DNA of 64,000 nucleotides from Gemmatimonadales bacterium. GTDB taxonomy: Bacteria; Gemmatimonadota; Gemmatimonadetes; Gemmatimonadales; JACORV01. This document shows positions 1 to 39,495 of the stretch, in pieces. The notes beneath the pieces are model-generated. The model was not told the origin of the DNA. It made no database searches and saw only the letters and a program-made list of their open reading frames with translations. Position numbers and translations under genes: made by a program. The first letter of the stretch is position 1. The number at the start of each line of letters is the position of its first letter. Location: the NCBI GenBank assembly GCA_030697825.1, contig JAUYOW010000214.1:548-64547 (forward strand). The letters are read 5' to 3'.

Positions 1-1
1 G

Positions 2-1584: not shown

Positions 1585-1600
1585 CTGCGAGGAGTGAGAG

Positions 1601-3174: not shown

Positions 3175-3188
3175 CGAGGGGAGGCCGA

Positions 3189-4810: not shown

Positions 4811-4878
4811 CGTCGGGCGGCTGACGCACCCGCTCGGCGGCGGCCGCATCCCGGCCGATCGCCCGGACTGGAACCCAA

Positions 4879-7934: not shown

Positions 7935-9346
7935 TACCGGGCGTGTGGATCGGGCTCGTCGCGGCGGTCGCCTCGGCACTCGCCGCCACGCGGCAGCCGG
8001 CCGATGCGCCGCCCCGGGCTCCGGCGACGCCGGTTCTCGCGGCCGACTCGTTCCCCCATCCGCGGCACGCGCGCCTTTTCACCTCTTGCACTACCTGCCA
8101 CTCCGGACTCGCGGGCGAAGACTCCACGGCCTTCTTTCCCGCGGCGGACGTATGCGTCCCATGCCATGACGGCGCCTTGGTGCGCCGAATCGATTGGGCG
8201 GGGCCGGGACCGCGGCGACCCACCAACTTGAGCTTCTCGCACCGCGCGCACCCAGAGATCGATTGCGCCATGTGCCACGCCGCCAGCGATACGGCCGCCT
8301 TCATGGAGGTGGGGAGAGCGCGCCCCGAGCGCTGCCTGATGTGTCACGCCCCGGAGGCGGCAAGCCACCTGGAGCAGGAGAGCTGCACCCAGTGCCACCG
8401 GGTCCTGACGGAAGCCAGGGCGCTGACGGCGGCCGACATCGCGCGCTTCCCCAAGCCGCCGTCCCACGATTCCGGATGGGTCTTCACCCATAGGCGCGCG
8501 GCGGCGGGCCCCACGTGTGCCACTTGTCACGCCCGAGAGTTCTGCGCCTCCTGCCACGTCAACGCGGCCGGCGTGGAGGCGGTGCGCGCGCTGCCCACCG
8601 ACGAGCGCGTCGCCGCACTGGCACGCGCTCGGCACGTGACTTACCGGGAGCCATCGTCCCATCGCAGCGCCAGCTTCGTCCGCTCCCATGGGCTGCTGGC
8701 GCGCGAGAGCGCGGCTACGTGTGGCAATTGCCACGCGCGCGAGTCGTGCCTCACCTGTCACCGTGAGGAGGAGCGCGTCGGACCGGTGGCGCTGCTGCCG
8801 CGGCGCACCCGCGGGGGGGCGCGGGGGGTGGATTTGCGGGACATCAGGCCGCCGGATCATTCGCCCGACTTCCAGCTCCGGCACCGCACCGCCGCCGCCG
8901 TCGGGGACGCCGTTTGCAGCCGGTGCCACAGCCCGTCCTACTGCGCCAGCTGCCACGCCGGTGCCGCAGCCCCCGGCTTCCATGGGCCCGACTTCGTCGA
9001 GCGGCACTCGGAGAACGCCTACACGCGCGAGAACGATTGCGCCGCCTGCCACCAGCCTGAGGCGTTCTGCGTCCAGTGCCACCGGGCCACCGGCCGCGCC
9101 GCCTCCCAGGCGCCGATCGGCCGGTTCCACGACGCGCAGCCGGCGTGGATCTTCGGGCACGGCGGGGTCGCCCGGCGGGCCATCGAGAACTGCGCCAGCT
9201 GTCACGCCCAGGCCGACTGCCTCCAATGCCACTCGGCGTCGGTCGGCTGGCGCGTGAACCCGCACGGGCGGAGCTTCGACAGCGGACTTGGCGACCGGAA
9301 TCCCGCCATGTGCCGCCGCTGCCACCCCGGCGGCCCGCCCCGATAG
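7931..9346 (+). CDS. 16-haem c-type cytochrome (c3/c7-like repeated modules), secreted
   Basis: GTGA overlap with the barrel-gene stop. Signal peptide VIPGVWIGLVAAVASALAA. 16 CXXCH. Recurrent module H-x(8-12)-CxxCH-x(3-4)-CxxCH (e.g. THRRAAAGPTCATCHAREFCASCH). Confidence 0.85.
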   Translation: MIPGVWIGLVAAVASALAATRQPADAPPRAPATPVLAADSFPHPRHARLFTSCTTCHSGLAGEDSTAFFPAADVCVPCHDGALVRRIDWAGPGPRRPTNLSFSHRAHPEIDCAMCHAASDTAAFMEVGRARPERCLMCHAPEAASHLEQESCTQCHRVLTEARALTAADIARFPKPPSHDSGWVFTHRRAAAGPTCATCHAREFCASCHVNAAGVEAVRALPTDERVAALARARHVTYREPSSHRSASFVRSHGLLARESAATCGNCHARESCLTCHREEERVGPVALLPRRTRGGARGVDLRDIRPPDHSPDFQLRHRTAAAVGDAVCSRCHSPSYCASCHAGAAAPGFHGPDFVERHSENAYTRENDCAACHQPEAFCVQCHRATGRAASQAPIGRFHDAQPAWIFGHGGVARRAIENCASCHAQADCLQCHSASVGWRVNPHGRSFDSGLGDRNPAMCRRCHPGGPPR

Positions 9347-9354
9347 GAGCCGCA

Positions 9355-10488
9355 ATGCCTGATACCCACGTTGCCGAACGCGCCGACGGCCACCACCTTG
9401 CAGGCGAGACCATGAGCGCTGCCACCACCGCCATCGATCCGGCGCTCGTCGCCGCGATCATCGACCTCTCGGCCGACGCCATCCTCACCGTTTCGCCCGA
9501 CGAGGTCGTGATGTCGTGGAACCAGGGCGCCCGGGAGATGTTCGGGTGGACGGCAGAGGAAATAGTCGGAAGACCGTTCACTGTTCTGCTGCCGGACGAG
9601 GCCATCGCGCGCGGCGAGCTGGAGTGGATCCACAGAACCACTCTGGCTGAAGGCGCGATCCGCAACTACGAGACCCGGCGCAGGCGCAGGGACGGCACCG
9701 TTTTCGACGTGAGCCTGACCCGTACCGCGGTGCGCGCACCCAACGGCGACCTGCTGGGATTCTCCGCCATCCTGCGCGACGTCTCCGACCGCAAGCGCCT
9801 CGAGCGCCAGCTCGCGCAGTCCGAGCGCCTCGCGACCGCCGGACAGGTCGCGGCCGGAGTCGCCCACGAGATAGGGGCACCGCTGACCGCGATCGCCATA
9901 GCGGTGGACCACATGCTGCGCTCGCGCTGTGCGGTCTGCGAAGGCGCCGAGGAGATGCGGATCCTCCAGTCGCAGACCGACCGGATCGCCAAGCTGGCGC
10001 GCCAGCTCGTCAACCTCGCCAAGCCGGCCGGCCTCTTGCTGGCCCCGGTAAACGTCAACGACGTCATCGCGCAGACGTCAGGCCTGATCCAGGCGCAGCT
10101 CCACCGTCACGCCGTACTGGTCACCCTGGACCTCGATCCCGAGCTGCCGGCCGTGCTCGGCGATGAGGCCCAGATCCAGCAGGTGTTCGTCAACCTGCTG
10201 CTCAACGCGCAGCACGCCCTCGAGGCCAGGGGGGGGAGGGTGAGGATCGAGACCGGGCGCGCGGACGCCAGGACCATCGAGATAGTCGTTTCCGATGACG
10301 GCCACGGCATCGAGGCATCGGACCTTCCGCACATCTTCACGCCGTTCTTCTCCCGTTCCGGCGGGACGGGCCTCGGCCTGGCCCTGGCCGCCCAGATAGT
10401 GCGCGCGCACCACGGCACCATCGAAGCGGCCTCGCCGGAGGGCGGCGGAGCACAGTTCATCATCCGGCTTCCCACGGCGGACGCATGA
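9355..10488 (+). CDS. cytoplasmic PAS-domain sensor histidine kinase
   Basis: PAS-like N-terminus (ILTVSPDEVVMSWNQGAREMFGWTAEEIVGRP). H-box AAGVAHEIGAPL. HATPase N/G boxes (NLLLNAQHAL, DDGHGI, GGTGLGLA). No TM segment seen. Confidence 0.85.
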   Translation: MPDTHVAERADGHHLAGETMSAATTAIDPALVAAIIDLSADAILTVSPDEVVMSWNQGAREMFGWTAEEIVGRPFTVLLPDEAIARGELEWIHRTTLAEGAIRNYETRRRRRDGTVFDVSLTRTAVRAPNGDLLGFSAILRDVSDRKRLERQLAQSERLATAGQVAAGVAHEIGAPLTAIAIAVDHMLRSRCAVCEGAEEMRILQSQTDRIAKLARQLVNLAKPAGLLLAPVNVNDVIAQTSGLIQAQLHRHAVLVTLDLDPELPAVLGDEAQIQQVFVNLLLNAQHALEARGGRVRIETGRADARTIEIVVSDDGHGIEASDLPHIFTPFFSRSGGTGLGLALAAQIVRAHHGTIEAASPEGGGAQFIIRLPTADA

Positions 10489-11915
10489 CCGAGCCCGACG
10501 TTCCCGTCGCTCCGGTGCGCCGCGTCCTGGTGGTCGAGGATGACGCCGTGGTGCGCCGCCTGCTCGAGAAGGTCCTCACCGACGAGGGGTACGAGACCGT
10601 GGGCGCCGCTTCCGGCGAGGAGGCGCTCACCGAGCTCGGCCGCCACCTCTTCGATGCCGTGCTCCTCGACCTCAACCTTCCCGGCATACAGGGTATGGAC
10701 GTGCTGGCGGTGGGCCCGACCCTCCAGACCGATACGCCTTTCATCGTGATGACGGCGTTCGGCTCGGTCGATACGGCCGTCGAGGCCATGAAGAACGGCG
10801 CGTTCGACTACGTGAGCAAGCCGTTCCGCACCGACGAGCTCCTCCTCACGCTGCGCCGCGCCCACGAGGAGACGGTACTCCGGCGGGAGGTGGCGCAGCT
10901 GAGGCGCCGGGTGAAAGAGGAGGGGCCCGGCGTCCGCATGGTGGGCAAGAGCGCGGGCATCGAGCGCGTCCGCGACCTAATCGCGCGGGTCGCGCCCAGC
11001 CGCGCCACGGTGCTCATCAGCGGGGACACGGGGACCGGCAAGGAGCTCGTCGCCCGCTCGATCCACGCCCTGTCGGGCCGCGCCGAGCATGCCTTCGTAG
11101 CCGTGAACTGCGCCGCGATCCCCGAGACGCTGATCGAGTCCGAGCTGTTCGGCCACATGAAGGGCGCGTTCACCGGAGCGATCGCGAACAAGCGCGGCCT
11201 GCTGGAGGAGGCGTCCGGCGGCTCGCTCTTCCTCGACGAGGTCGGCGCCATCTCGGCGAACATTCAGGTCAAGCTGCTGCGCACGCTCCAGGAGCGCACC
11301 ATCCTGCGGGTCGGCGGCCGCGAGCCGGTGCCGATAGACATCCGCCTGATCGCCGCCACCAACCTCGATCTCGCGGAGGAAGTGCGCGAAGGACGGTTCC
11401 GCGAGGACCTCTTCTACCGGGTGAGCGTTTTCCCGATCCACGTGCCGTCGCTGCGGGAGCGGCGCGACGACATCCCGGTCCTCGCCTCGTACTTCCTCCG
11501 GCGCGCCGCTTCCGAGCACGGGGTGGAGGCGCCGGCGATCCCGCCGGCCACCATGCAGCGGTTGCTGGACTACGACTGGCCGGGCAACGTCCGCGAGCTC
11601 GAGAATTTCGTCGAGCGCTCGGTGATCATGCACGCGGGCGCCAAGACGATCCCCTTCGATCCCAGCGAGGGCCTGCACCGCCGCCAGGAGCACGACCTGC
11701 TGAAGACGGCCCGCGCGGAACGGTGGAACCTGGAACGCCTCGAGCGCGAGTACATCCTTTCCGTGCTCGAGGAAGCAGGCGGTCACCAGGGCAAGGCCGC
11801 CGATGTCCTCGGCATCGACCGCCGCACCCTCTACCGGAAGCTGAAGCTGTATGGCGGGGAGACTGATGCCAGCGTCGAGGGCACGGTTCCCGAGGCCGAG
11901 GCGGCCCAGTCCTAA
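10485..11915 (+). CDS. sigma54-dependent response regulator (NtrC family: receiver + AAA+ + Fis-type HTH)
   Basis: ATGA overlap with the kinase. Receiver VLLDLNLPG. Walker A GDTGTGKE. GAFTGA motif. Walker B LFLDEVG. C-terminal HTH AADVLGIDRRTLYRKLKLYG. Confidence 0.9.
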   Translation: MTEPDVPVAPVRRVLVVEDDAVVRRLLEKVLTDEGYETVGAASGEEALTELGRHLFDAVLLDLNLPGIQGMDVLAVGPTLQTDTPFIVMTAFGSVDTAVEAMKNGAFDYVSKPFRTDELLLTLRRAHEETVLRREVAQLRRRVKEEGPGVRMVGKSAGIERVRDLIARVAPSRATVLISGDTGTGKELVARSIHALSGRAEHAFVAVNCAAIPETLIESELFGHMKGAFTGAIANKRGLLEEASGGSLFLDEVGAISANIQVKLLRTLQERTILRVGGREPVPIDIRLIAATNLDLAEEVREGRFREDLFYRVSVFPIHVPSLRERRDDIPVLASYFLRRAASEHGVEAPAIPPATMQRLLDYDWPGNVRELENFVERSVIMHAGAKTIPFDPSEGLHRRQEHDLLKTARAERWNLERLEREYILSVLEEAGGHQGKAADVLGIDRRTLYRKLKLYGGETDASVEGTVPEAEAAQS

Positions 11916-27307: not shown

Positions 27308-28495
27308 TTATCGCCTGACACTCATCACCGTTTCCAACACATCCACCACCTTCTCCATCTCGTCAATCGTATTGTAGCAGTGTGGGCTGAGCCGAATCGC
27401 CCCCTCCCGGAAGGCGCAGATCACTCCCGCCTGCTTGAGCCTCCGATGCGCTTCGCGCGCATCCTCGGGCGCCACGCACACGATCCCCGACCGGTGGAGG
27501 TCGTCGGCCGGTGAGACGATGCGCACCCCGCGGCGGCGCGACCACTCCAGCACCGGCTCCGCCAGCGAGCGCACGTACCCGCCGATCGCGTCGACGCCCA
27601 GCTCCATCAGCAGCCCCAGGGACGTCGCCATGCCGAGCTGGTCCTGGAAGGCGACGGTGTGCACCTCGAAGCGTCGCGCGTCGTCGCGAAGCCGGTCGCC
27701 GTAGTTCACCAGGTTGGTGAAGTCCTCGGTCCCCTCGAACGCCATCCACCCCACGCTCGCGGGCTCCACCGTGGGGATCAGCTCGCGCCGCACGTAGCAG
27801 AAACCGGAGCCCCACGGCGAGAGCAACCACTTCTGCCCGCCGCAGGCAAGCACGTCCACCGGCGTCTCGCGCACGTCGAGCGGCGAGTTGCCAAGTCCCT
27901 GTATCGCGTCCACGACCAGGTACGCGCCGTTGGCGCGGCACGCCGCCGAAAGGCGCGCGAGGTCGGCCCTGAAACCGTTGCTGAACTGCACGAACGACAC
28001 CGCGAGCACGCGCACCCTGGGGTCGCTCAGGCGCTCGACGAGGTAGTCCTCGTCGGGGAACCCCTCGGCGTTGACGGGCGCGAGCTCGACCTCGACGCCA
28101 CGTTTCCGGAGCGCCAGCCACGGATACACGTTGGCCGGGAACTCGCGGTCGCTGAGCAGCACGGTCTCGCCGCGCGCCAGCGGCAGCGCTCCCGCGGCGA
28201 CGTTGATCCCGTACGTCGTGTTGGGCCCGAGCGCGATCTCTTCCGGCGTCGCGTTGATGAGCCGGGCCGCGGCCGCGCGCGCTGAAGCGAGATGGGCCAT
28301 GAGCTCGCGGTCGGGCAACAGGTGTGGCGCGGTGCGCTTGGCGTTGAACGCCTCGAGCGCGAGGCGGGTGCGCTCGGGGATCGGTCCGACGGATGCGTTG
28401 TTGAGGTAGGTGGTCGCCGCGGTCCAGGGGAACTCGCGGTCGCGCAGCTCCCGTACGAGTTCGCGCAGCCGCGGCGCGGCGGCGACGTGCGTCAT
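27308..28495 (-). CDS. class V aminotransferase / cysteine-desulfurase-like PLP enzyme
   Basis: YLNNASVGP near the N-terminus. DAIQGLG. PLP-lysine region GGQKWLLSPWGSGFCYV. Confidence 0.8.
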   Translation of the reverse strand: MTHVAAAPRLRELVRELRDREFPWTAATTYLNNASVGPIPERTRLALEAFNAKRTAPHLLPDRELMAHLASARAAAARLINATPEEIALGPNTTYGINVAAGALPLARGETVLLSDREFPANVYPWLALRKRGVEVELAPVNAEGFPDEDYLVERLSDPRVRVLAVSFVQFSNGFRADLARLSAACRANGAYLVVDAIQGLGNSPLDVRETPVDVLACGGQKWLLSPWGSGFCYVRRELIPTVEPASVGWMAFEGTEDFTNLVNYGDRLRDDARRFEVHTVAFQDQLGMATSLGLLMELGVDAIGGYVRSLAEPVLEWSRRRGVRIVSPADDLHRSGIVCVAPEDAREAHRRLKQAGVICAFREGAIRLSPHCYNTIDEMEKVVDVLETVMSVRR

Positions 28496-28513
28496 GGGCG
28501 GAGTGGCGCTGGC

Positions 28514-29638
28514 ATGGTGACCGCCGCTACGTTAACCCCCGATGCGATGGCACGGCAAGCGGCGGTGAATCCCACCTGGCGTTTCGGTCTCGTCCTGGGC
28601 GGCGGCGGCATGCGCGGTCTCGCGCACGTGGGTGTGCTGCGCGCGCTCGAGGAGCGCGGCTGGATCCCCGCCGAGATCGTCGGCACCAGCATCGGGTCGC
28701 TGCTGGGAGCGGTCTGGGCCACCGGCCGGTACACCATCGCCGAGATGGAGCAGATCTCGCTCGATCTCACCCGTCGCGACATCTTCCAGATCGCGCACGG
28801 CGACATGGCGTTCAAGCGGATGCGCTCGCCCGCCCTCTACCGTTCCGAGCCCCTCGCCGCGCTCATCCAGCGCCTCGTCGGAGACGTGAAGTTCCGGGAG
28901 CTCAAGCGTACCCTCATCATCAATTCCGTCGACATCAACAGCGGCACCCAGATGTTCTGGGGGCTGCCGGGCCTCGGGGACATGCGGGTGGCGGACGCGG
29001 TGTTCGCCTCGTGCGCGCTGCCCGGGTTCTTCGCGCCCCACGAGATCGGCGGCCGCTTCTACGTGGACGGCGCGATCGTGGACAACCTTCCGGTGCGCAT
29101 CGCCGCGGCGCGCGGCATGGACGCGGTGGTGGCGGTGAACGTGGGGGCGTCGAGCCTCCTTCGCGCCGACACGCAGGAGGCGGGGTTCGCGGCGGTCTAC
29201 GCGCGCGGCTCCGAGATCGTATTCCAGCAGGCGATGGAGTGGCACCTGCGCTCCTGGGCCAAGCCACCGTTGCTCCTGGTGCAGCCCAGCGTGCAGCAAC
29301 TTCCCATGATGTCTTTCGACCACACGCGCGAGTTGATGGACGAGGGTCACCGCGCGACGCGGGTGGCGCTCGAGCGGACGGGGAACGCGATCCAGGCCGC
29401 GACCGAGGGGATCTTCCCCCGGCGGCTGGTGCAGATCCGCGTCAACGAGGAGCGGTGCATAGGCTGCGGCGCCTGCCTCAGCTACTCGGCGCCCGGGATG
29501 TTCAGGATGGAGAATGGGAAGGCAGTCGGGCCCGATGGCCCGTGCGAGTGGTCGCCGATAGACGGCGACGTGATCCGGCACTGCCCGACCTTCGCGATCA
29601 CGGCGCGGCCCGTGCCGGCCGCCTCGCCATCCGCCTAA
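28514..29638 (+). CDS. patatin-like phospholipase with C-terminal single-cluster ferredoxin domain
   Basis: Oxyanion GGGGMRG, nucleophile GTSIG, catalytic DGA. C-terminus CIGCGAC...(38 aa)...CP, a CxxCxxC...CP Fe-S ferredoxin pattern. An alternative ATG is at 28547. Confidence 0.8.
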   Translation: MVTAATLTPDAMARQAAVNPTWRFGLVLGGGGMRGLAHVGVLRALEERGWIPAEIVGTSIGSLLGAVWATGRYTIAEMEQISLDLTRRDIFQIAHGDMAFKRMRSPALYRSEPLAALIQRLVGDVKFRELKRTLIINSVDINSGTQMFWGLPGLGDMRVADAVFASCALPGFFAPHEIGGRFYVDGAIVDNLPVRIAAARGMDAVVAVNVGASSLLRADTQEAGFAAVYARGSEIVFQQAMEWHLRSWAKPPLLLVQPSVQQLPMMSFDHTRELMDEGHRATRVALERTGNAIQAATEGIFPRRLVQIRVNEERCIGCGACLSYSAPGMFRMENGKAVGPDGPCEWSPIDGDVIRHCPTFAITARPVPAASPSA

Positions 29639-31119
29639 CTGACCCTCCGCCGCGGGCCCCGGTCCGTGCGCGTCGTGTCTATCCATAGACTGTCCGGGAT
29701 GCCGGGAGGCGCCCGGCCCGCCGCGTGACAGTTGTCGCACGAGAGACCGGCCTCGAGAACGTGCCCGGCGTGGGTCAGAGGCCTTCCCGAAACAGTATCG
29801 CCTCCCGCCCGCGCCTCCTCGATCCCGTAGTGACAGTAGGTACAGCCGCCGTCGGCGACCGGGGGCCCCAGCTCCGGCCGCGGCGGTGGGGTGCGCGACG
29901 CCAGCTGGTACGCCTCCACGGTCAGAGCGAGGGCGCGCCGCATCACCTGGTCCACCACCGGCAGGTTGTGCATCGGCCCCGCGCGGTCCACGAACGCGAG
30001 CTGGCTTCCTGCCTGACGGAGCCTGACCTTCGCGGCGCGGGGGGCCGCGCTGTCGCCGAGCGCCGCTTCCGCGTCGCGCAAATAGCCGCTCACCCAATCG
30101 CGCCGACGCGCGTATCCGCGACGCCACCTTTGCAGGATGCCGCTCCATTCGCCGCCGTGGCAGCCGGTGCACGCCGCGGGCGTGGTGCGCAACGACCGTC
30201 CGGGGCGGGGCGGCGCCTGGCCCGGCGCCGCGTGACAGGAGCGGCAGGTGACCCCGGCCATGAACATCGAGTTGGGGCGGAGCTCCTCGCCCGGCATCAG
30301 GCCGAGCATGAGTCGCTGCTGCTCCGAGTGCACGCTTTCATGGCAGTCGGCGCAGGCCGCGGTCCGCGACGTGTCGGCGGGGATGGGCCGCCGGTGCCGG
30401 GACGCGTGACAGTCCAGGCACCGTAGCACGATGGACGAGCTCATCGCGACCACCCGGTGCGCCGGCTGCGTGTGGCAGGCCCGGCAGGCGAAGTCACCGT
30501 GCGTGGTGTGCGCCCGCGCGGCGTTGATCGTCGTATCGATCGTCTCGGCCGGGCGGGCGCGGTCACCCCGGTGGCAGTCGGTGCAACGCGCGACAGCTAC
30601 CGCCGTATCGCCCTCCACGAGCTGGTAGTGGCAGCGCGTGCACGGCACCTGGGCGCTCTGAAGCGAGGGATGTGGCAGCTGCAGGCCCTGGCTGGTCTGC
30701 CGCGTGTGTCGAGGAGCTGGGTGGCAGCCGGCGCAGCCGGTGTCGCTGCGCCCGGCGATTTGCGTGAAGTGGCACAGCACGCAGGCCGACGCGTCCGCGG
30801 CGAGAGACATCGAGTCCGGCGCGTGAGAGTGGCAGGCCGCGCACGGGACGACGCGGCCGTCGCCCGCCGGGTGGCTGTCGTGCGCGAACTCCACCATCGC
30901 CACGCGCGCCCGCGCCGGGCCGCCGGTCGGGTGGCAGCGCTGCGTGGAGCAAGCCCCGTCCGGCACACCGACGCGCCCGGCCTCCACGGCGCCCTCCCGG
31001 TGGCAGCCGAGACACGCCACGCGCTGGTGCGCGAGTCGCCGTGCCCCGCCCTCCTCGCGCCCACAGCCGCAGAGCGCGGCGACCAACCCGACGGCGACGC
31101 CCAAGCGCCCTACTAGCAC
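29635..31119 (-). CDS. 13-haem c-type cytochrome lipoprotein (plus one CX4CH)
   Basis: GTG 31119 overlaps the upstream stop (GTGCTAG). Signal/lipobox GLVAALCGC-G. 13 CXXCH plus CSTQRCH. Confidence 0.85.
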   Translation of the reverse strand: MLVGRLGVAVGLVAALCGCGREEGGARRLAHQRVACLGCHREGAVEAGRVGVPDGACSTQRCHPTGGPARARVAMVEFAHDSHPAGDGRVVPCAACHSHAPDSMSLAADASACVLCHFTQIAGRSDTGCAGCHPAPRHTRQTSQGLQLPHPSLQSAQVPCTRCHYQLVEGDTAVAVARCTDCHRGDRARPAETIDTTINAARAHTTHGDFACRACHTQPAHRVVAMSSSIVLRCLDCHASRHRRPIPADTSRTAACADCHESVHSEQQRLMLGLMPGEELRPNSMFMAGVTCRSCHAAPGQAPPRPGRSLRTTPAACTGCHGGEWSGILQRWRRGYARRRDWVSGYLRDAEAALGDSAAPRAAKVRLRQAGSQLAFVDRAGPMHNLPVVDQVMRRALALTVEAYQLASRTPPPRPELGPPVADGGCTYCHYGIEEARAGGDTVSGRPLTHAGHVLEAGLSCDNCHAAGRAPPGIPDSLWIDTTRTDRGPRRRVS

Positions 31120-33173
31120 AGCGTTCCCCAGAGCACGAGGCCGATCAGGAGGAGGCCGACACCGAGGAGCAGCAAGCCGCTCACGGCCGCGACCATGTTC
31201 ATCCATCCGGGCGGCGGCGGAGCCGCCTCGTCGATGATCGCCCGGCGGCTGGGTTCCTTCCCTTCCACCTTAGCCCGCAACGCCCCGGCGATCAGCGGAT
31301 GCTCCTCCTCCATGTACCGGAGCGAGGCGCGGCCAGTGAACATGACCGCGTCGAGCGGCCACTTGTCGGGCCGGAGATGGACGTTGAAGAAGTGGATGAT
31401 GAAGATGAAGGCGGTCGCGATCATCGCCTCGTACGAGTGGATGATGATGGCGACGTTGAACACGATGCCGGGGAAGATCCGCGCGAAGAACACCGGCTGC
31501 CAGAGCACGATGCCGGTCGCGCTGATGATGCCGACGCCCCACAGCTCCGCGAAGTAGTCGAACTTCTCCAGGTAGCTATACCGGCCGAACTGCGGCTTCG
31601 GCCCGCGCCCGAAGAACCACTTCACCATCGCCACCGCATCGCGCGCGTCCTGCCACCGGAAGGCGATCGACTCGGATCCGAGCAGCAGGCCGCGCTTGTC
31701 CCGCGCCCTCCACACCCGGTACGCCAGGTACGCCGCGTAGAGCCCGAAGTAACCGAAGACCATCACGCCGGCAACGCGATGGATCCGACCCGCGAGTATC
31801 CCGCCGCCCAACAGCCGTGCCAGCGCCGGCGCCCACGCGGTGCAGCTGTACCTCAGGGGCAGCCCGGTGAGGACCAGCAGGTAGAAGCTGGCCACGATCA
31901 GCGCGTGGATGACCCGGAAGACGAGGTTGAAACGCCACACGTAGGGTGGGCCGCCCCGCAACGCGGCGTCAAGCGGTTCGGCCGGCGCCGCGTGCGCCGC
32001 CGCGGGTTGCCGCCGCCGGTCGATCATCGTGCGCGCGTACCACAGGGCCGCGTGCGTACCCCACCCGATCATCGTGCCGTACAGCACGACGTTCATGAAG
32101 AACCAGATGTAGAAGATCCCCGGGTTCTGCGCGCGGCTCCTGGGGTTGGCGTGGGGCCGATACCCGGCGAACCCTCCGCTCGCGCCCTCGTGGCAGTGCC
32201 GGCAAGTCGCGATCCGGTTCCCGGCGGAGACGGTCGAGGCCGGGTCCGTCGTCCGGAACACGGCATGCGCCGTGTGGCAGTCGGCGCACTCGGCGGCCCG
32301 AACGGAGCCCAGGGCCGCGGCCTGGCCGTGATAGGTGTCGCGGAAGGTCGAGCCATACTCCTCGTGGCACCGCGTGCACGCGAGCGTCGACGCGAACCGC
32401 CAGGTGGGATCGCTGGCGCGACGGATCCCGTGCTCGCCGTGGCAGGAGATGCAGGTCGCCGCGGTGTCGGCGCCGATCGGCTCCACCCCCGAAGCCTGGC
32501 GCGCCGCGGTGCGCCCGTGGACGTCGCCCCAGTACGTCGCGCTCTCCTTCGTGTGGCACGCGCTGCACGCGCGGGCGAGCGCCAGGTCGATCTTCCGCGT
32601 GGCCTCATCGGGCACGGGACGCATGTCGTGCGTGCCGTGGCAGCGGGTGCACGCGATCGAGTCCCCGTGCACGTCGCGGGCGGCGCTCCGCACCTGCCCC
32701 GGGTGGCAGCGCCGGCACGCCTCGCGCATGTGCGCGCGGCCGGCGGCCGTCGGCAGGAAGCCGGACCGCGCGACGTCGTGCCCGCCGTGGCAAGCGACGC
32801 AGGTCGCGGCCGGCGCGTCCCCGCGCGCCCTGGCATGGACCCCCGCCCGCCAGCGGGAGTCCTGTTCGGCGTGGCAGCGACCGCACACCACCCGCAGCGC
32901 CGCCGCCGGCTGGTGCGGATAGCGCTCGACGCCGGTGTGGCAGGCGGCGCACGCCACGCTCGCGTGCGGCCCGCCCGAGAGCGCGGCGCGCGTCACGACG
33001 AGGCCCGCTCCGACGTTCCGATCGGAGGCCGCCCCGAGCAGGAACTCCCGGCTCGCGTGGCAGCGCTCGCACTCGGGGGACCGCTGGGCGCGCGCGGGCC
33101 GGGCCGGGAGGGCGGCGAACACGGCGGCGAGCGCGGTGACGACCGAGGTGCGCGCTAGCATAGTTGCACCCAC
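31113..33173 (-). CDS. CbcL-like fusion cytochrome: periplasmic 11-haem c domain + C-terminal b-type (FdnI/HydC-like) membrane domain, copy 2
   Basis: Signal peptide ...ALAAVFAALPARPARAQ. 11 CXXCH. Then about 5 TM helices with conserved His (RVIHALI, RIHRVAG, IIIHSYEAM, FIIHFFNVHLRPDKWPLD). Start is GTG 33173 or ATG 33161 (the ATG overlaps the upstream stop as ATGCTAG). Confidence 0.85.
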   Translation of the reverse strand: MGATMLARTSVVTALAAVFAALPARPARAQRSPECERCHASREFLLGAASDRNVGAGLVVTRAALSGGPHASVACAACHTGVERYPHQPAAALRVVCGRCHAEQDSRWRAGVHARARGDAPAATCVACHGGHDVARSGFLPTAAGRAHMREACRRCHPGQVRSAARDVHGDSIACTRCHGTHDMRPVPDEATRKIDLALARACSACHTKESATYWGDVHGRTAARQASGVEPIGADTAATCISCHGEHGIRRASDPTWRFASTLACTRCHEEYGSTFRDTYHGQAAALGSVRAAECADCHTAHAVFRTTDPASTVSAGNRIATCRHCHEGASGGFAGYRPHANPRSRAQNPGIFYIWFFMNVVLYGTMIGWGTHAALWYARTMIDRRRQPAAAHAAPAEPLDAALRGGPPYVWRFNLVFRVIHALIVASFYLLVLTGLPLRYSCTAWAPALARLLGGGILAGRIHRVAGVMVFGYFGLYAAYLAYRVWRARDKRGLLLGSESIAFRWQDARDAVAMVKWFFGRGPKPQFGRYSYLEKFDYFAELWGVGIISATGIVLWQPVFFARIFPGIVFNVAIIIHSYEAMIATAFIFIIHFFNVHLRPDKWPLDAVMFTGRASLRYMEEEHPLIAGALRAKVEGKEPSRRAIIDEAAPPPPGWMNMVAAVSGLLLLGVGLLLIGLVLWGTLC

Positions 33174-36100
33174 ATGATCATGCCGACGATGACCAGTCCG
33201 ACGGCGAGAGCCAGCAGGCCCAGAGTCGCAGCCGCGATCGTCATCCAGCGCGGCGGCGGCGGCGCCGGCGCGTCGGGGACGGCGCGAGGGCTGACCGGAC
33301 GCGAGGCCAGGTCACCCCAGGTTTCGGCGGTGAGCGGGTGATCCGCCTCGAGTGACTCCGCCGTGGCGCGGCCGGTGAACATCACGCCGTCCAGCGGGAA
33401 CTTGTCCGGCCTGAGGTGCACGTTGAAGAAGTGGATGAGGAACATGAAGCCGGCGGCGAGCATCGCCTCCTCGGAGTGGATGACCGCCGCGACGTTGAAC
33501 GCCCAGCCGGGCAGGATCCTCGTGAAGATGCCCGGGAACCAGCGGATCAGTCCCGTGCCACCTAGCAGCACGATCCCCCAGAACGCGCCGAAGTAGTGGA
33601 ACTTCTCGTTGTAGCCGTACCGGCCGAAGCGCGGATACGGCGCCCTGCCGAAGAACCACTTGAACATCTGCACGAAGTCGCGGAAGTCCTGGGGCTGCGG
33701 GACCACCGAGTCGGGACCCCACAACATCGCCCGCCGGTTGGTGGAGCGCAGGAGCAGCACCGTGGTGTAGACGACGTGCGCGGTGAAGTACAGCACGGTG
33801 ACGGCGCCGGCGCCGCGGTGCACCAGGCCGGCGACACGGGTGCCGCCGAGGAGGCGCATCATGTCCACCGCCCACACCGCGCACGAGAAGCGGAGCGGCA
33901 GGCCGGTGATGACGAGCGCGAAGAAGCTGACGACCGAGACGCCGTGCACCAGGCGATGGAAGAGCTTGAAGCGCCAGACGTACGGCCCTTTCCCCCGGTC
34001 GGCGCTGTCCATGGGCGTGCGCTCCTTCGGCCGCGGGGGCAACCCCAGCGCCTTCCGCCGCCGCCGCTCGGCCCACCGGATCTCAAGCAGCCGCGCCAGC
34101 CACAGCACGGTGTGCAGCCCGAACACCGCGAACACCGAGAAGAGCAGCACGTTCATCAACAGCCATGCGGCGAAGACCGGCGGGCTGTCGGAGGGATCGC
34201 GGGCACGGACGTGGGCCCGGTAGGAGACGAAGCTGGGCCGCGCGGCCGACCCGTGGCACGCGGCGCAAGTCTCTACCCTCCGCCCGGCGGACGTGGACGC
34301 GCGGGGATCGCTGGAGGGGAAGATCTCGTGAGAGCCGTGGCAGTCCACGCAGCGCGCAGCGCGGTAGTAGCCGACGCGCGTCGCGCGTCCGTGGTAGGTG
34401 TCGGCGTAGGACTCCCCCTCGCGCCGGTGGCAGGCCCCGCACCGCTCGACCAGGGCCACTTCGCGATCGAGGGCGTGTGCAGGCTTCATTCCGTGGCCGC
34501 CGTGGCAGGCAACGCAGGTGGCAGCGGTGTCGGCGTGAAGCGGGGCCGCTCCCGCGACCTGCGCGCGCGCCGCGATCCCGTGGACGTCGCGGAACGCGAC
34601 CGTCGCCACCGAGTCGTGGCAGCCCGCGCACCGCTCCGAGATGGCGATGGGGACGCCGCGCGTGGCAGGATCGCGCACCGGCTGGATCATGTGTGCCCCG
34701 TGGCACGTGGCGCAGCTCACCCGGTCCTTGTGCACGTCGCCCGGCGGGAAGGGCCGGTCCGCGTGACACGCCACGCAGCGCGCCGAGAGCGCTATCGCGC
34801 CCGCGCCGCGCTCGAGCTCCCGGCTTGGTCGCACGTCGTGCGTGCCGTGACAGCTCGCGCATCCCGCCTCCTCCCGGCCGCGGCGGCCCCCGTGGGGACC
34901 GGCCCGCCACAGCGAATCCGCCTCGGTGTGGCACGTCCCGCACGGCACCACCGCGCGCCCTTCCTCCGGGTGCGGCAGGAGGCCGGGGATGGGGTGGCAG
35001 CGCACGCAGGGCACGGACGCGTGGACGGTGCCGCTCAGCTCGTCGCGCGAAACGAAGAGCGAGTCGGCATGGTAGCCGGCCGGCGCCCGCCGGTGGAGGA
35101 ACTCGCGGTCGGCGTGGCAGATCTCGCACTGCGCGCTCGTCCGCCGCTCCGCGGCCGTCTGCGCCCGGAGGAGCGGCGCCACGGCAAGCAAGGCGGCCGC
35201 GAGAAGGCCGTACCGTTTCATCCGGGTGCGCACCTGATGCCGGCTGATGCCGAGCGCCTCCGCGGCGCGGGACTGGTTGCCTCGGGCGTGCTCGAGCGCC
35301 GCGACGAGGAGCCGGCGCTCGACCTCCTCCAGCGTCGTCCCGCCAGAGACGGCGGCGCTTGCCTGCGGCGCCGCCAGCTCGGGCGGCAGCTCACGGGTGC
35401 CGAGCGTCTCGCCGTCGGCGAGGAGCACCGCGCGCTCGATGACGTTCTTGAGCTCCCGCACGTTGCCGGGCCAGGGATAGCGGGCCAGCACGGCCAGTGC
35501 GCCCGGCTCGACCCCGCGCACTCTCTTGCCGAGCTCGCGGTTGAACTGGGCCACGAAGTGCTTGGCCAGCGGCTCGATGTCCTCGGGTCGCTCGCGCAGC
35601 GGCGGCATGGTGATGGGGATGACCCGCAGCCGGTAGAAGAGGTCGGCGCGGAACCGTCCGGCATCGACCTCCTCGGCGAGCGACCGGTTGGTGGCGGCCA
35701 TGATCCGCACGTCCACCTTCAGATCGCGGGTGGCGCCGAGGCGGCGGAACGTCTTCTCCTCGATGAACCGGAGGAGCTTGGCCTGGACACCCGGGGTCAG
35801 CTCGCCGATCTCGTCGAGGAAGAGGGTGCCGCCGTCGGCCATCTCGACCAGTCCGCGCTTGGCCGCGTGGGCGTCGGTGAAAGCGCCGCGCTCGTGCCCG
35901 AACAGCTCCGATTCCATGAGCGTCTCGGGGAGCGCGGAGCAGGTCACGTTCATGAACGGCCGCGCGGCCCTCGGGCCGAGCCGGTGTATCGCCTGCGCGA
36001 TCGCGCCCTTGCCGGTGCCGCTCTCGCCCTCGATCAGTACGGTGGTCGCATCCGCCGCGGCCAGGCGCGCGACCAGCTCGAAGACGCGCTCCATTGCCGG

Positions 36101-36535
36101 TCCGGTGCCGATCACCGTCGTGCCGGCCAGCGAGCTGCGGTCCCGCAGCGCCGCGACCTCGCGGCGCAGCGCCGTCACCGCCAGCGCCTGCCGCACGGTC
36201 GCGACCGCGCGATCCAGCGAGAACGGCTTTTCCAGGAAATCGTGCGCGCCGAGCTTCAGCGCTTCCACGGCCAGGCTGACCGTGGCGTGCGCGGTCATCA
36301 CGACCCACACGCTGTCGCCGCCGTGCGCCGCCTCGCGGAGCAGATCGAGCCCTTCGCCGTCCGGCAGGCGGAGGTCGAGCAGCACGACATCCGGCGCAGC
36401 GGTGTCCAGCCCGGCGCGCGCCTCACGCAGGGTACCGGCGGCCGCCACCTCGATGCCTTCGTGCTGCAACCGCTCGGCGAGCACGCTGCGCAGCAGGGCA
36501 TCGTCTTCCACGATGAGGAGACGCTCTCCGGCCAT
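33155..36535 (-). CDS. single uninterrupted ORF: sigma54-dependent response regulator (36535 to about 35205) joined in frame to CbcL-like 11-haem + b-type membrane cytochrome, copy 1 (internal ATG 35221 to 33155)
   Basis: Receiver (VVLLDLRLPDGEG), AAA+ (GESGTGKG, GAFTDA, LFLDEIG) and HTH (AAEALGISRHQVRTRMKRYGL) run with no stop codon into LLAAALLAVAPLLRAQ (signal-peptide-like). Then come 11 CXXCH and TM helices with RLVHGVS, LVHRGAG, AVIHSEEAM, FLIHFFNVHLRPDKFPLD. ATG 36535 shares one base with the kinase stop (TGATG). Confidence 0.8.
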   Translation of the reverse strand: MAGERLLIVEDDALLRSVLAERLQHEGIEVAAAGTLREARAGLDTAAPDVVLLDLRLPDGEGLDLLREAAHGGDSVWVVMTAHATVSLAVEALKLGAHDFLEKPFSLDRAVATVRQALAVTALRREVAALRDRSSLAGTTVIGTGPAMERVFELVARLAAADATTVLIEGESGTGKGAIAQAIHRLGPRAARPFMNVTCSALPETLMESELFGHERGAFTDAHAAKRGLVEMADGGTLFLDEIGELTPGVQAKLLRFIEEKTFRRLGATRDLKVDVRIMAATNRSLAEEVDAGRFRADLFYRLRVIPITMPPLRERPEDIEPLAKHFVAQFNRELGKRVRGVEPGALAVLARYPWPGNVRELKNVIERAVLLADGETLGTRELPPELAAPQASAAVSGGTTLEEVERRLLVAALEHARGNQSRAAEALGISRHQVRTRMKRYGLLAAALLAVAPLLRAQTAAERRTSAQCEICHADREFLHRRAPAGYHADSLFVSRDELSGTVHASVPCVRCHPIPGLLPHPEEGRAVVPCGTCHTEADSLWRAGPHGGRRGREEAGCASCHGTHDVRPSRELERGAGAIALSARCVACHADRPFPPGDVHKDRVSCATCHGAHMIQPVRDPATRGVPIAISERCAGCHDSVATVAFRDVHGIAARAQVAGAAPLHADTAATCVACHGGHGMKPAHALDREVALVERCGACHRREGESYADTYHGRATRVGYYRAARCVDCHGSHEIFPSSDPRASTSAGRRVETCAACHGSAARPSFVSYRAHVRARDPSDSPPVFAAWLLMNVLLFSVFAVFGLHTVLWLARLLEIRWAERRRRKALGLPPRPKERTPMDSADRGKGPYVWRFKLFHRLVHGVSVVSFFALVITGLPLRFSCAVWAVDMMRLLGGTRVAGLVHRGAGAVTVLYFTAHVVYTTVLLLRSTNRRAMLWGPDSVVPQPQDFRDFVQMFKWFFGRAPYPRFGRYGYNEKFHYFGAFWGIVLLGGTGLIRWFPGIFTRILPGWAFNVAAVIHSEEAMLAAGFMFLIHFFNVHLRPDKFPLDGVMFTGRATAESLEADHPLTAETWGDLASRPVSPRAVPDAPAPPPPRWMTIAAATLGLLALAVGLVIVGMIMWVQLC

Positions 36536-37995
36536 CAGGCCTCCGCCATCTCCGCCGCGGCCGCCGCGGCGCGCACCGGGAATCGCAGGTGGAAGACCGT
36601 GCCCCGGCCGACCTCGCTCTCGACCCACACGCGACCGCCGTGCGACGCGACCACGCGCGCCACCAGCGCGAGACCGAGGCCGGTACCGTACGGCTTGGTG
36701 GAGAAGAAGGGCTTGAGGATGCGGTCGATGTTCTCGGGCGCGATCCCGACTCCCGTGTCAGCCACGTCCACCGCGACATCCTCGCCGCCGGAGCGGGTCG
36801 TGACGGTGAGCGTGCCCCCGCCCGGCATGGCTTCGACCGCGTTGACCAGCAGGTTGTGCATCGCCTGCTCCAGCCGCGCCGAGTCACCATCGATGACCGG
36901 GACGGCGGGGCCGTAGTCGCGCACCACGGTCACCCGCTCGGACCCCGGCACGCCGGAGAGCCGCACCAGCGCCGCGTCTATCACCTCGTGCAGCTTCGTG
37001 GGCTGCGCGTTCAGGCCCACCGGCTTGGCGAGGCTCAGGAGGTCGCGCAGCGTCTGATCGAGCTGCACCAGCTCGAGGTCCACGCGCCGTAGCAGCGCCT
37101 TCTCTCCGTCGCTCATCGCATACTCCTGCGCGATCAGCTCGATGGCGCTCTTGATGCCGGCGAGGGGACGCTTGATCTCGTGCCCGACCTCCGCCGCCAG
37201 CGCCCCGACCTCCGCGAACCCCGCCTGCTCCACGAGAGTGCGCCCGCGGGTCTGAGCGAGACGCTCGGCCTGCTGCTCCCTGGCGATCAGCGCATCCACC
37301 GATGCGCCCAGCCGGCCGAATTCGTCGCGGCGCTCCATTCCCACCCGCGCGCCCTGCTCGCCCGCCCTGGCCCGCGCCAATCCCGCGCGCAGCTGTCCCA
37401 GCGGCGCGACAATCTCGCGCTCGAGCATCGCGCCCAGCACCACGGCATAACCGAGCCCTAGCAGTACGGTGAGCACCACGCCGTAGGTGCGTCCCCGACG
37501 GATCGTGTCTCCTATTTTCTTCTCGTTGAGCAGGAACTCCAGCGTGGCGCGCCCTCCCGGGCCTCCGACGCCCGAAAGCGCAACCACGGCGCTGACGATG
37601 GGCGCGCCGGCACCGCTCACTACCAGCCCTTCGGGCGGAATGTCCCGCGGGTCCGGCAGCGCGGCGCCGATCCTCTTGGCGCCTTCCTCGGCAGGACTGC
37701 TGGAGAGGAGAACACGGCCGTCGAACGCGACGATCCGGTAGCCCTCGGCGGGGGGACGGTTGGTGAGCGAATCGAGCCGCTCGCGCACCAGTCCCACCTG
37801 TCCGTGAGCCAGAGCGCCCTCGATCGAGGGCCGAATGGCGCGGGCGGCCATCAGCGCGTGGTCCGCGGTGAGGGTGAACTGCTCACGCTCCCAGTAGCGG
37901 AACGACAGCAGCGTCGCCGTGCCCAGCACCACGAGCAGGGCGCCCAGCCCGGTCACGAGGACCTTGGCGCGGACCGACAGGTCTTGCAGCCTCAT
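36535..37995 (-). CDS. membrane sensor histidine kinase (TM - periplasmic domain - TM - HAMP-like - HisKA - HATPase)
   Basis: Start ATG 37995 (MRLQDLSVRAKVLVTGLGALLVVLG). Second TM YGVVLTVLLGLGYAVVLGAML. H-box AAEVGHEIKRPL. N/G boxes NLLVNAVEAM, DTGVGI, GTGLGLA. Confidence 0.85.
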   Translation of the reverse strand: MRLQDLSVRAKVLVTGLGALLVVLGTATLLSFRYWEREQFTLTADHALMAARAIRPSIEGALAHGQVGLVRERLDSLTNRPPAEGYRIVAFDGRVLLSSSPAEEGAKRIGAALPDPRDIPPEGLVVSGAGAPIVSAVVALSGVGGPGGRATLEFLLNEKKIGDTIRRGRTYGVVLTVLLGLGYAVVLGAMLEREIVAPLGQLRAGLARARAGEQGARVGMERRDEFGRLGASVDALIAREQQAERLAQTRGRTLVEQAGFAEVGALAAEVGHEIKRPLAGIKSAIELIAQEYAMSDGEKALLRRVDLELVQLDQTLRDLLSLAKPVGLNAQPTKLHEVIDAALVRLSGVPGSERVTVVRDYGPAVPVIDGDSARLEQAMHNLLVNAVEAMPGGGTLTVTTRSGGEDVAVDVADTGVGIAPENIDRILKPFFSTKPYGTGLGLALVARVVASHGGRVWVESEVGRGTVFHLRFPVRAAAAAAEMAEA

Positions 37996-38012
37996 CCACT
38001 GTGCGAAAAGGC

Positions 38013-38027
38013 GCAATCCGCGTGCCG
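38013..38027 (-). promoter_or_regulatory. near-consensus sigma54 (-24/-12) promoter upstream of the kinase/regulator/cytochrome operon
   Basis: The minus strand reads CGGCACG-CGGA-TTGCG against consensus TGGCACG-N4-TTGCW. It lies in the 73-bp gap between the upstream gene stop (38069) and ATG 37995, with the -12 GC 18 nt before the ATG. Confidence 0.55.
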
Positions 38028-38068
38028 TTAAGCAAGCGGACCGCACCTCAGTGAACCGAGCCGGGGAC

Positions 38069-39277
38069 CTAGATCGCCAGAAGCCCGAGCACCGCGCCGG
38101 CAGATGCGTGCGCGGCGATGGCCGTCCCCAGGCCGCGACGCCAGAACAGATATCCGAACAGGACGGCCGGGATGGCCATGCGGGCCACCACGTAGGAGAC
38201 GGTGACGGCGACGCCCGGAAGGCCGAGGGCCGGAACCATGGGCCAGTGGACCAGCATGTCGGCAAGGGTCGCGACCACCACCGCGACACCCACGGCCCAC
38301 TCGCGCCGGGGTGGAACGAACCGCATCACCAGGACGAAGGCGACTGTGAAGAGGAAGAGCCTCAGCGCCAGCTCATCGGCGACCGCGTCGGCCACCGCGA
38401 GGACGACGGCGCGCGTCACGCCGAGCCGCGAAGCGTCGGTGGGGATGCCGAGCACTCCCTCGCTGAACGGCACCGCCAGGAGCGCCACCACGACGCCCGC
38501 CGCGCCCGCCAGTCCCGCGCGCCCGAGCAGGTCACGCCACCCGCGCGCCGGACCGAAGCGGGCGACCGGGAGCAGCGGCCGGACCTTCCGCAGCAGCGCC
38601 AGTCCGGTGGTGATGATCGGCCCGTAGAACCAGAAGGTGGCGGCGATCACGAACACGGCCGCCCCGATGCCAGTGAGCCGCACGTCGGTGAACCAGATGG
38701 TCGGACGGCGGATCGCCACGGTCACGGCCAGCGCGACGAAGGTGGCGCCGACGAGGAGCGTGCCCGGCACCCGGTCCGGCCAGCGCCGGTAAGCGAGCTT
38801 CGCGGCGTCGAGGCCCGCGCCCGCGGCGAACGCGAGGACGCCGAAGGTCAGCAGCCACGCGAGCACCGACACCGCGGTCGCGAACACCTTGTGACTGTGG
38901 AGCGCTATCGGCAGGGTGGCCACCCACCCCGCCGTGAGCCATCCGAGCAGCAGAGCAGGCACCAGATAGATCAGGCCGTGCGCCATCTGGCCGGCGGCCA
39001 CGCGCGGCGTCGTGCCATCCGGCCGCCCGAAGATGCCGAGGACCAGCCCGTGCAGCAGCCCGAGCGCCGCGCCGATCGCGTAGAGCAGCACGCTCATCAT
39101 CAGGAACGCGTGTGCGCTCAGCCGGTCGGTCGCCAGCAGGCCGACCACGGCCACGCCACCCAGCAGCAGCCCGCCAGCGAGGGACCACGCGATGAGCACC
39201 GCCGCCGGCAGCTCCACTTCGCGCTGCGGAACGTGGGTGCCCGTCGCGCCAGCCTGGAGATCCGCGTTGGTCGTCAT
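38069..39277 (-). CDS. polytopic membrane protein, possible CPBP/Abi-type intramembrane protease domain at the C-terminus
   Basis: ATG 39277 preceded by GCAGGAGGTGGTT (strong SD). At least 10 hydrophobic helices. The C-terminal DELALR...LVHW...AAHAS only loosely resembles the CPBP motifs EExxxR / FxxxH / HxxxN. Confidence 0.55.
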   Translation of the reverse strand: MTTNADLQAGATGTHVPQREVELPAAVLIAWSLAGGLLLGGVAVVGLLATDRLSAHAFLMMSVLLYAIGAALGLLHGLVLGIFGRPDGTTPRVAAGQMAHGLIYLVPALLLGWLTAGWVATLPIALHSHKVFATAVSVLAWLLTFGVLAFAAGAGLDAAKLAYRRWPDRVPGTLLVGATFVALAVTVAIRRPTIWFTDVRLTGIGAAVFVIAATFWFYGPIITTGLALLRKVRPLLPVARFGPARGWRDLLGRAGLAGAAGVVVALLAVPFSEGVLGIPTDASRLGVTRAVVLAVADAVADELALRLFLFTVAFVLVMRFVPPRREWAVGVAVVVATLADMLVHWPMVPALGLPGVAVTVSYVVARMAIPAVLFGYLFWRRGLGTAIAAHASAGAVLGLLAI

Positions 39278-39495
39278 AACCACCTCCTGCCTCGGTACAC
39301 CTTCATCTGCGCTTCCGATGGCAAGGAGAGGCATGGGCGGTGCCAGGAGACGCGGGCAGCGCGCGACAATGGCTATCGCACTTGGCGCCCGCGACTTGCG
39401 GGTAGGAGGAGGATCGAGCGGGTCGCTGTGGCGAAGGCGCGGTTGCGCCGATCGGGCCAGCAACTGTGTGAAGCGGAACAGGCGGGAGGGCAGAT

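Follow-up and report, generated by a model that had tools for sequence, protein, structure and literature searches.

A sigma-54 response regulator fused to a CbcL-type 11-haem cytochrome in a conserved gene cassette of Gemmatimonadales

We analysed a window of 64,000 nucleotides (nt; contig JAUYOW010000214.1) from a member of the Gemmatimonadales, a soil or groundwater bacterium, with a G+C content of about 70%. Its minus strand carries a closely packed gene run (29635-39277) encoding MEMB (a polytopic membrane protein), a sensor kinase, a response regulator in one reading frame with a multihaem cytochrome (regulator~A), and two further multihaem cytochromes, B and C. By homology, cytochromes A and B are real members of a known, widespread family, and most of the distinctions claimed for them in a preliminary description of this DNA proved to be ordinary; what sets the locus apart is the conserved fusion of regulator, signal peptide and cytochrome, together with a variant in which the cytochrome is split into subunits. 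The reading that we consider probable is that of a six-gene, sigma-54-controlled electron module between quinone and periplasm, in which the regulator~A precursor would be cut by signal peptidase.

The frame of regulator~A is open from 36628 to 33155, with no stop between the regulator and cytochrome A, and the gene itself (33155-36535, minus strand) encodes 1126 amino acids (aa) without an internal stop. Gene A had been described as starting at 35221, but this Met, found in the sequence ...GISRHQVRTRMKRYGLL, lies inside the helix-turn-helix (HTH) of the regulator, at the end of the recognition helix. Residues 1-441 (from MAGERLL; 35213-36535, -) make up a complete NtrC-type sigma-54 response regulator, with a REC domain (Response_reg, E-value 1.5e-23), an AAA+ domain carrying GESGTGK and GAFTDA (Sigma54_activat, 2.7e-64), an AAA lid and HTH_8 (4.4e-15) in Pfam, and AtoC/NtrC-like matches in NCBIfam. 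The basic end of the HTH then serves as the n-region of a predicted internal Sec-type signal peptide (MKRYG-LLAAALLAVAPLLRA|Q; 35162-35221, -), which is followed by a periplasmic c domain with 11 CXXCH motifs (34187-35161, -; Pfam Cytochrome_C7 and c3_2) and by a membrane domain of six transmembrane (TM) helices with an FdnI-like dihaem b core, ending ...VQLC-stop (33155-34186, -; Pfam Ni_hydr_CYTB, 25.7 bits against a cut-off of 30.1). The regulator is therefore not a free-standing soluble protein ending after the HTH, either in the window or in its fused relatives. Directly upstream, the stop of the sensor histidine kinase gene (36535-37995, -; 486 aa) overlaps the ATG of the regulator in a TGATG junction. 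The kinase has two TM helices and a periplasmic domain of about 190 aa, followed by HisKA and HATPase_c; it has AtoS/ZraS-like NCBIfam matches over its C-terminal half and orthologues in the related cassettes.

The regulator stands next to, or is joined with, the cytochrome in the 12 loci that could be read, and the two are fused in nine of them. The fusion is full in six (the window, L001, L004, L006, L083 and L085). In another three (L084, 3083-6507; L086, 3598-7007; L088, 3568-7007), it comprises the regulator, the 11-haem domain and one TM helix only (839-849 aa), and is followed, after a 4-nt overlap, by a separate FdnI-like b subunit of 297 aa, then by an extra full copy of the cytochrome (A2), and then by B and C. 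Regulator and cytochrome are split in L002, L087 and the outgroup L008. The stop at the junction is missing from all nine fused loci as well as from 18 protein clusters in JGI, ENA and NCBI, which are 53-97% identical to A in their cytochrome part; altogether, the fusion is seen in about 20 protein clusters. Faulty assembly or sequencing does not explain the fusion, as the junction recurs in independent JGI, ENA, NCBI and GTDB assemblies at these identities. Repeated fusion and fission, our first reading of the neighbor-joining (NJ) tree, was also abandoned: most of the apparently unfused A proteins (starting ML...) are the A2 copy that lies behind a fused copy. Our literature search found no report of a fusion between a regulator and a multihaem cytochrome, nor of the split-subunit variant.

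The junction itself (35162-35251, -) has kept the full anatomy of a signal peptide. All 18 fused proteins have M(K/R/Q)(R/K)(Y/W/H)G, followed by 14-22 residues that hold a short apolar run and a Pro/Gly breaker, and then a site with Ala or Gly at -1, a small residue at -3 and Gln at +1. The same AxA|Q site ends the N-terminal signal peptides of 57 of the 59 B-clade proteins and of the A2 copies. Like the N-terminal signal peptide of B, the junction segment is variable in sequence and modelled with a predicted local distance difference test score (pLDDT) below 50. In the regulator part, the sigma-54 contact loop reads GAFTDA, not GAFTGA, in all 17 fused proteins that span this region, and the GESGTGK Walker A motif is kept in all but one of those spanning the AAA+ region. 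The regulator thus resembles NtrC, AtoC and ZraR in its REC, AAA+ and HTH_8 domains, its Walker A motif, a cognate kinase upstream and a nearby promoter with GG-N10-GC spacing, and differs from them in its GAFTDA loop and in an HTH that, in the window, continues into a signal peptide and a cytochrome without a break. In L085 (4660-9420), MEMB and regulator~A are kept with no kinase gene between them, and the Walker A motif differs from GESGTGK; this locus retains the sigma-54 promoter, which is accompanied by a leader of 70 nt and a strong GAAGGAGG ribosome site.

Cytochrome B repeats the architecture of cytochrome A. It consists of a predicted signal peptide (..ARPARA|Q) and a periplasmic 11-haem c domain (32127-33161, -), followed by a six-TM membrane domain with an FdnI-like dihaem b core that ends ...GTLC-stop (31113-32126, -). 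The frames 33155-35221 and 31113-33173 had been described as two copies of a single design with 11 CXXCH each, and this is borne out: the motif count gives 11 in A and 11 in B, the two align at 45% identity over 663 aa, and both contain the block FNVHLRPDK(F/W)PLD.VMFTGRA and terminate in ...LC-stop, as reported. The start of B needs moving from 33173; it is most likely the ATG at 33161, which overlaps the stop of A in an ATGCTAG junction and agrees with NCBI protein P0001 (682 aa, from a Gemmatimonadales metagenome-assembled genome), to which B is 100% identical. The B/C junction is built in the same way (GTGCTAG), each start overlapping the preceding stop, and the overlap between successive genes is 7 nt at these two junctions.

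Chance resemblance between these proteins is excluded because all 11 CXXCH motifs, 10 extra His residues of the haem domain and 6 His residues of the membrane domain are invariant in 57 homologues. In CbcL, the nine haems are His-His coordinated and the protein reduces the periplasmic cytochrome PpcA (PMC13591261); the ten invariant extra His residues would fit a similar coordination here. The NJ tree separates A and B into two clean clades, which are told apart by 33 positions, many of them in the membrane domain. Both paralogue lineages are old and conserved separately, and they always co-occur. Because of this constant co-occurrence and the overlap of the genes, a working pair fits better than two alternative points of electron entry, and A and B most likely act together rather than as alternatives. 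The preliminary description had proposed a second, separately regulated entry point from the quinone pool; separate regulation is supported by the dedicated kinase/sigma-54 pair and the conserved promoter, whereas the co-occurrence of A and B favours a pair over alternatives. As to minor features of these proteins, a C-terminal Cys follows the sixth TM helix, on the predicted periplasmic side, in every Gemmatimonadota member, L007 and L008 included (last codons 33158-33160 and 31116-31118 in the window). It is retained also in loci where the following gene starts without an overlap, and is missing from the relatives in Acidobacteriota and from those of the CbcL type.

The membrane domains were compared with known structures using an AlphaFold2 (AF2) model of B (pLDDT 85.4). 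It shows six TM helices, at residues 347-384, 413-437, 453-485, 530-554, 566-595 and 652-681, where about five had been counted before; the corresponding helices of A, in the numbering of the fusion model, lie at 785-829, 858-882, 899-930, 975-999, 1010-1040 and 1096-1125. Likewise, the four conserved membrane His contexts reported earlier become six invariant His residues in the 57 homologues (370, 419, 461, 575, 590 and 595 in B; 808, 864, 906, 1020, 1035 and 1040 in the fusion). The only solved structure that matches the membrane domain is that of Escherichia coli FdnI (PDB 1kqf_C): the domain of B matches it in sequence with an E-value of 1.5e-6, and Foldseek returns it as the only real fold match, with a probability of 1.00, a TM-score of 0.76 and a root-mean-square deviation of 3.7 Å. 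Below the curated cut-offs, the membrane domains also match TIGR01583 (E-value 1e-7) and PF01292 (25.7 and 28.5 bits). In both single-sequence and profile alignments, the FdnI haem ligands H18, H57, H155 and H169 align to the invariant H419, H461, H575 and H595 of B. The last two are 20 residues apart, compared with 14 in FdnI, because an insertion of 6 residues lies between them in the last core helix; from H575 to H590 the distance is 15 residues. A and B further differ from FdnI in having an additional TM helix before and after the core, a fused c-type domain, and no FdnG/FdnH partners encoded beside them. Neither FdnGH nor hydrogenase catalytic subunits are among the neighbours, which are instead the kinase, the regulator, the cytochromes and MEMB; the JGI label 'cytochrome b subunit of formate dehydrogenase' hence names the domain only. 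Two of the invariant residues of B, H370 and H590 (window positions about 32052-32054 and 31392-31394), lie outside the four FdnI ligand equivalents, the former (HT..W) where the extra first TM helix meets the cytoplasm and the latter in HFFNxH, and these could mark a quinone site or a further cofactor.

By their homology, A and B are members of the CbcL/MtrH/MtoC family, which was described from 15 phyla, with 3-23 CXXCH motifs, 416-1034 aa and six TM helices (Zhong and Shi 2018, PMC6295460). Table S2 of that study gives GSU0274 as a protein of 619 aa with haems at 34, 57, 82, 105, 129, 158, 186, 229 and 257, and also contains 11-haem and 19-haem members with spacings equal to those of matches found here (PMC6295460). 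We used the published haem and TM positions of GSU0274 as a fingerprint for CbcL-type proteins, so that the comparison runs through such proteins and not through GSU0274. GSU0274 is reportedly the CbcL of Geobacter sulfurreducens studied by Zacharoff in 2016. One of the CbcL-type proteins, P0435 (617 aa), carries nine haem positions identical to the GSU0274 list and aligns by BLASTP to B at 34% identity over 609 aa (E-value 2e-102) and to A at 33% over 647 aa (1e-103). Another, P0438, has the same nine positions and falls into one 90% cluster with a Desulfuromonadales protein. A search with the b domain among 1.84 billion representatives (E-value at most 1e-3) yielded 2082 clusters at 50% identity, including 9-haem proteins with CbcL spacing at 40-44% identity, and a profile built from these 9-haem proteins recovered 'cbcY [Geobacteraceae]' and several proteins with the exact GSU0274 haem positions. 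Helix for helix, the TM segments of B follow the order of the GSU0274 list, shifted by 53-63 residues, or about two haem units. In a genome scan, at least 600 stretches from many phyla matched (599 confirmed), with no Geobacter among the best 80 of these. PDB 28pb_A ('Cytochrome c', 278 aa, a recent deposit) was considered as a structure of CbcL and dismissed: our profile matched it over the first haems of the haem domain with an E-value of 6e-17 (B residues 31-181), and a CbcL-type protein only with 5e-5.

The resemblance to Geobacter CbcL thus covers the signal peptide, the periplasmic multihaem c domain, six TM helices and the FdnI/HydC-like core, as had been proposed from the sequence, as well as the motifs HT..W, R..H, HR, IHS.EA and HFFN.H.RP.KFP.D. 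The homology extends well beyond the CXXCH motifs, as the membrane domains are 40-45% identical to those of CbcL-type proteins. The preliminary description had presented 11 rather than 9 haems as a distinction of this locus. The difference from CbcL is real but lies within the family range (PMC6295460), and 11-haem forms are common, with members in Geothrix fuzhouensis, Verrucomicrobiota, Pseudomonadota and others. Other differences from CbcL are the two co-conserved tandem paralogues, the C-terminal Cys in all Gemmatimonadota members, the setting of A and B beside a kinase and a sigma-54 regulator, and the fusion of A to this regulator. In their layout, the split-subunit loci L084, L086 and L088, whose 11-haem c subunit has one terminal TM helix and whose FdnI-like b subunit is separate, recall Geobacter CbcBA, in which a b-type CbcB accompanies a 7-haem CbcA with a C-terminal anchor helix (PMC13591261); the window differs from CbcBA in having the single-chain form, and the haem count is not the same.

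The gene order MEMB, kinase, regulator, A, B, C is found in all Gemmatimonadales loci that could be read (L001, L002, L004, L006 and L083-L088), so that the tandem duplication and its tight coupling to a multihaem lipoprotein, noted before for the window, are conserved across this order. The more distant Gemmatimonadota L007 and L008 have one cytochrome copy and C (kinase, regulator, cytochrome and C in L008), which places the origin of the duplication within Gemmatimonadales. Cytochrome C (29635-31119, -; 494 aa) had been called a 13-haem lipoprotein. It does contain 13 CXXCH motifs, but a further conserved CX4CH (CSTQRCH, residues 51-57; window 30949-30969, -), with the counterparts CDRSGCH and CTSAACH in homologues, brings the haem motifs to 14 and makes C a probable 14-haem protein. 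Its start is most likely the GTG at 31119, from which these residues are numbered and which overlaps the stop of B, and not 31206 as first proposed. The Cys after the h-region is conserved in the window, L001 and L002, and C is a probable lipoprotein, although the window box, LCGC, is atypical. C is 51% identical to its L001 orthologue and weakly matches PDB 6i5b_A (E-value 1e-3). The operon contains no porin, MtrAB-like pair or terminal reductase, and the 'extracellular acceptor' suggested for the system is therefore unsupported.

A putative sigma-54 promoter for the kinase, regulator~A, B and C (P2, CGGCACGCGGATTGC; 38013-38027, -) lies between MEMB and the kinase; it is close to the consensus and has the canonical GG-N10-GC spacing. 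P2 occupies the same intergenic place in 11 of 11 loci; it is identical in eight (the window, L002, L006, L083-L086 and L088), has one substitution in L001 and L004, and is more diverged in L087 (CGGCATGCCAATTGC). The kinase start follows its TTGC by 17 nt, which implies a very short leader. This promoter was found only by comparing loci: a plain scan of the window for the sigma-54 consensus was not enriched (20 matches, 18 expected). A sigma-70-like site was not seen anywhere in 10.4 kb. P2 also forms the 3' arm of a hairpin (38010-38047, -), followed by a short T-run, which folds as RNA with -28 to -38 kcal/mol in nine of 11 loci. The left arm of the hairpin varies by wobble or compensatory changes and the right arm is constant; in L085 and L087, P2 is retained without the left arm. 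The hairpin probably doubles as a terminator-like insulator after MEMB, although a simple terminator scan passed over it in the window, whose copy has a tail of just 4 T. A weaker sigma-54-like -24/-12 element (TGGCACCGCCCATGCC; 39330-39345, -) lies about 55-70 nt upstream of MEMB, and a YGGCAC-N5-xTGC element of variable sequence is present upstream of the MEMB orthologue in seven of nine loci. As the regulator sits in the operon that it would activate, positive autoregulation is the simplest reading.

In the module that we propose, A and B would each export an 11-haem c domain, which a single TM helix links to a four-helix FdnI-type core; this core would hold two b haems on its four invariant His residues, and a sixth helix would follow at the C terminus. 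Electrons would pass from a quinol site through the b haems and the 11 c haems to the lipid-anchored cytochrome C, or in the reverse direction. The hydrophobic stretch after the HTH would act as a retained Sec signal peptide that targets the nascent chain to the membrane co-translationally, and signal peptidase I would cut at AxA|Q to give a normal mature cytochrome A; it is the retention of a complete signal-peptide anatomy that argues for such a cut. The regulator, left with a short hydrophobic tail, would be either membrane-tethered beside the kinase or released once the remnant is cleared, and would drive P2, which would amount to positive autoregulation. The existence of both fused and split forms is accounted for in this scheme, because near-identical mature proteins would result from either. 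Haem binding, quinol chemistry, the pairing of A with B, cleavage and autoregulation are all predictions at this stage.

Several points weigh against this scheme. All of it is deduced from the sequences of uncultured genomes, and it would be unusual for a signal peptide to be cut when it lies 440 residues inside a protein. The Met at the junction is conserved, so that internal initiation is possible, and the AAA+ part is poor in the fusion model. In the membrane domain, the PF01292 and TIGR01583 scores fall under the curated cut-offs, and the fourth b-haem ligand, predicted from aligned sequences, is ambiguous between H590 and H595. The operon also encodes no outer-membrane porin or terminal reductase, and the family as a whole has been proposed to run in both directions (PMC6295460).

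Regulator~A might instead remain uncut, as a permanently membrane-tethered sigma-54 activator in which A is mainly a redox sensor or tether governing how active the regulator is, and B the working oxidoreductase. The regulator always adjoins or joins the A lineage and never the B lineage, the fusion persists where the b subunit has been split off (L084, L086 and L088) and in L085 without a kinase gene, and in the fusion model the HTH and the hydrophobic stretch share a single unbroken helix, all as would be expected of a tether. We nevertheless regard this as unlikely: the stretch is short, with some 10-13 apolar residues before Pro/Gly, the AxA|Q peptidase site is kept, split versions exist (L002 and L087), and A keeps all the haem motifs and His residues of a working enzyme. 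Moreover, the recognition helix is followed by no linker, so that binding to DNA would probably be sterically hard at the membrane. We give equally little credence to separate synthesis of the two products. In that case, ribosomes would initiate A at the internal Met (MKRYGLL...), and the loss of the stop codon would add a read-through fusion that the cell tolerates. This Met is invariant in all fused proteins, where it would give a perfect n-h-c signal peptide, and at the corresponding position of the split relative L002, stop and start overlap by 4 nt; but the same Met occurs in split regulators (RTRMERHG in L002, RTRMARYG in L087) and so is not fusion-specific. Furthermore, no Shine-Dalgarno-like sequence precedes it in the window or L001, in a lineage that uses GGAGG elsewhere, and without a stop each ribosome translating the regulator runs on into A, so that making the regulator always means making the fusion.

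The direction of electron flow is a separate question. The module could run in reverse, in the role proposed for MtoC: Fe(II) or another donor, in the periplasm or outside, would pass electrons via C and the c haems to the quinone, and the module would then be no CbcL-like quinol oxidase. We see this as a possibility of some substance, though a doubtful one. Cultured Gemmatimonadota are mostly aerobic or facultative, and a cbb3 oxidase maturation cluster (FixG/H/I/S and FixP) lies near the L001 locus, which would suit such a role. The occurrence of the family in Fe(III) reducers as well as Fe(II) oxidisers, which no sequence feature tells apart (PMC6295460), also leaves room for it. Against it, the sequence here gives no sign of direction, and the operon has no MtoA/B or Cyc2 partner for Fe(II) oxidation.

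For the cleavage that we favour, the precedent is FbcH of Bradyrhizobium, a cytochrome b-c1 precursor that is split at an internal signal peptide by signal peptidase. It is the only precedent for such an internal cleavage that we know of. Like regulator~A, FbcH combines a cytoplasm/membrane-side part and an exported c-type cytochrome in one chain with an internal signal peptide; its halves are subunits of one respiratory complex, whereas the upstream half here is a soluble transcription activator and the cleavage is predicted. If cut, regulator~A would be a rare bacterial polyprotein that supplies one regulator per cytochrome and delivers this regulator to the membrane beside its kinase. If uncut, it would be a membrane-tethered enhancer-binding protein coupled to a respiratory chain. 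The redox or assembly state of a respiratory protein might then directly gate transcription of its own operon, which we consider improbable; to our knowledge, such a link between electron transport and sigma-54 activation within one polypeptide would have no described precedent. In either case, gene control would be coupled to membrane electron transport in a new manner. Apart from the fusion, the analysis extends the family to Gemmatimonadales, where its members form a conserved A/B pair with a dedicated, probably 14-haem partner; this is of use in interpreting the redox potential of metagenomes from soil and groundwater.

The first cassette gene, MEMB (38069-39277, -; 402 aa), is 47-59% identical to the first cassette gene of L001, L002 and L083-L088. 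It has no Pfam match, and a profile of nine sequences found no match in the PDB. Its C-terminal ExxxR and RGxxTAxxxH motifs, together with DxxxH, brought to mind a CPBP/Rce1-like intramembrane protease, an assignment that was discarded, as it has no Pfam or PDB-profile support and the His of DxxxH is not invariant. The operon converges on a neighbour (28292-29638, +) that unusually combines a patatin-like phospholipase with a 4Fe-4S ferredoxin-like motif at the C terminus. Further away, the window contains a second multihaem cluster (1-11915, +), whose redox genes, at 1-9.3 kb, encode a bc-type cytochrome b, a mono-haem cytochrome c, a Fer4_11 iron-sulfur protein and cytochromes with 8, 4, 17 (with a NapC-like N-terminus) and 16 haems. 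After them comes a second sigma-54 response regulator (10299-11915), which fits the two separately controlled modules envisaged in the preliminary description.

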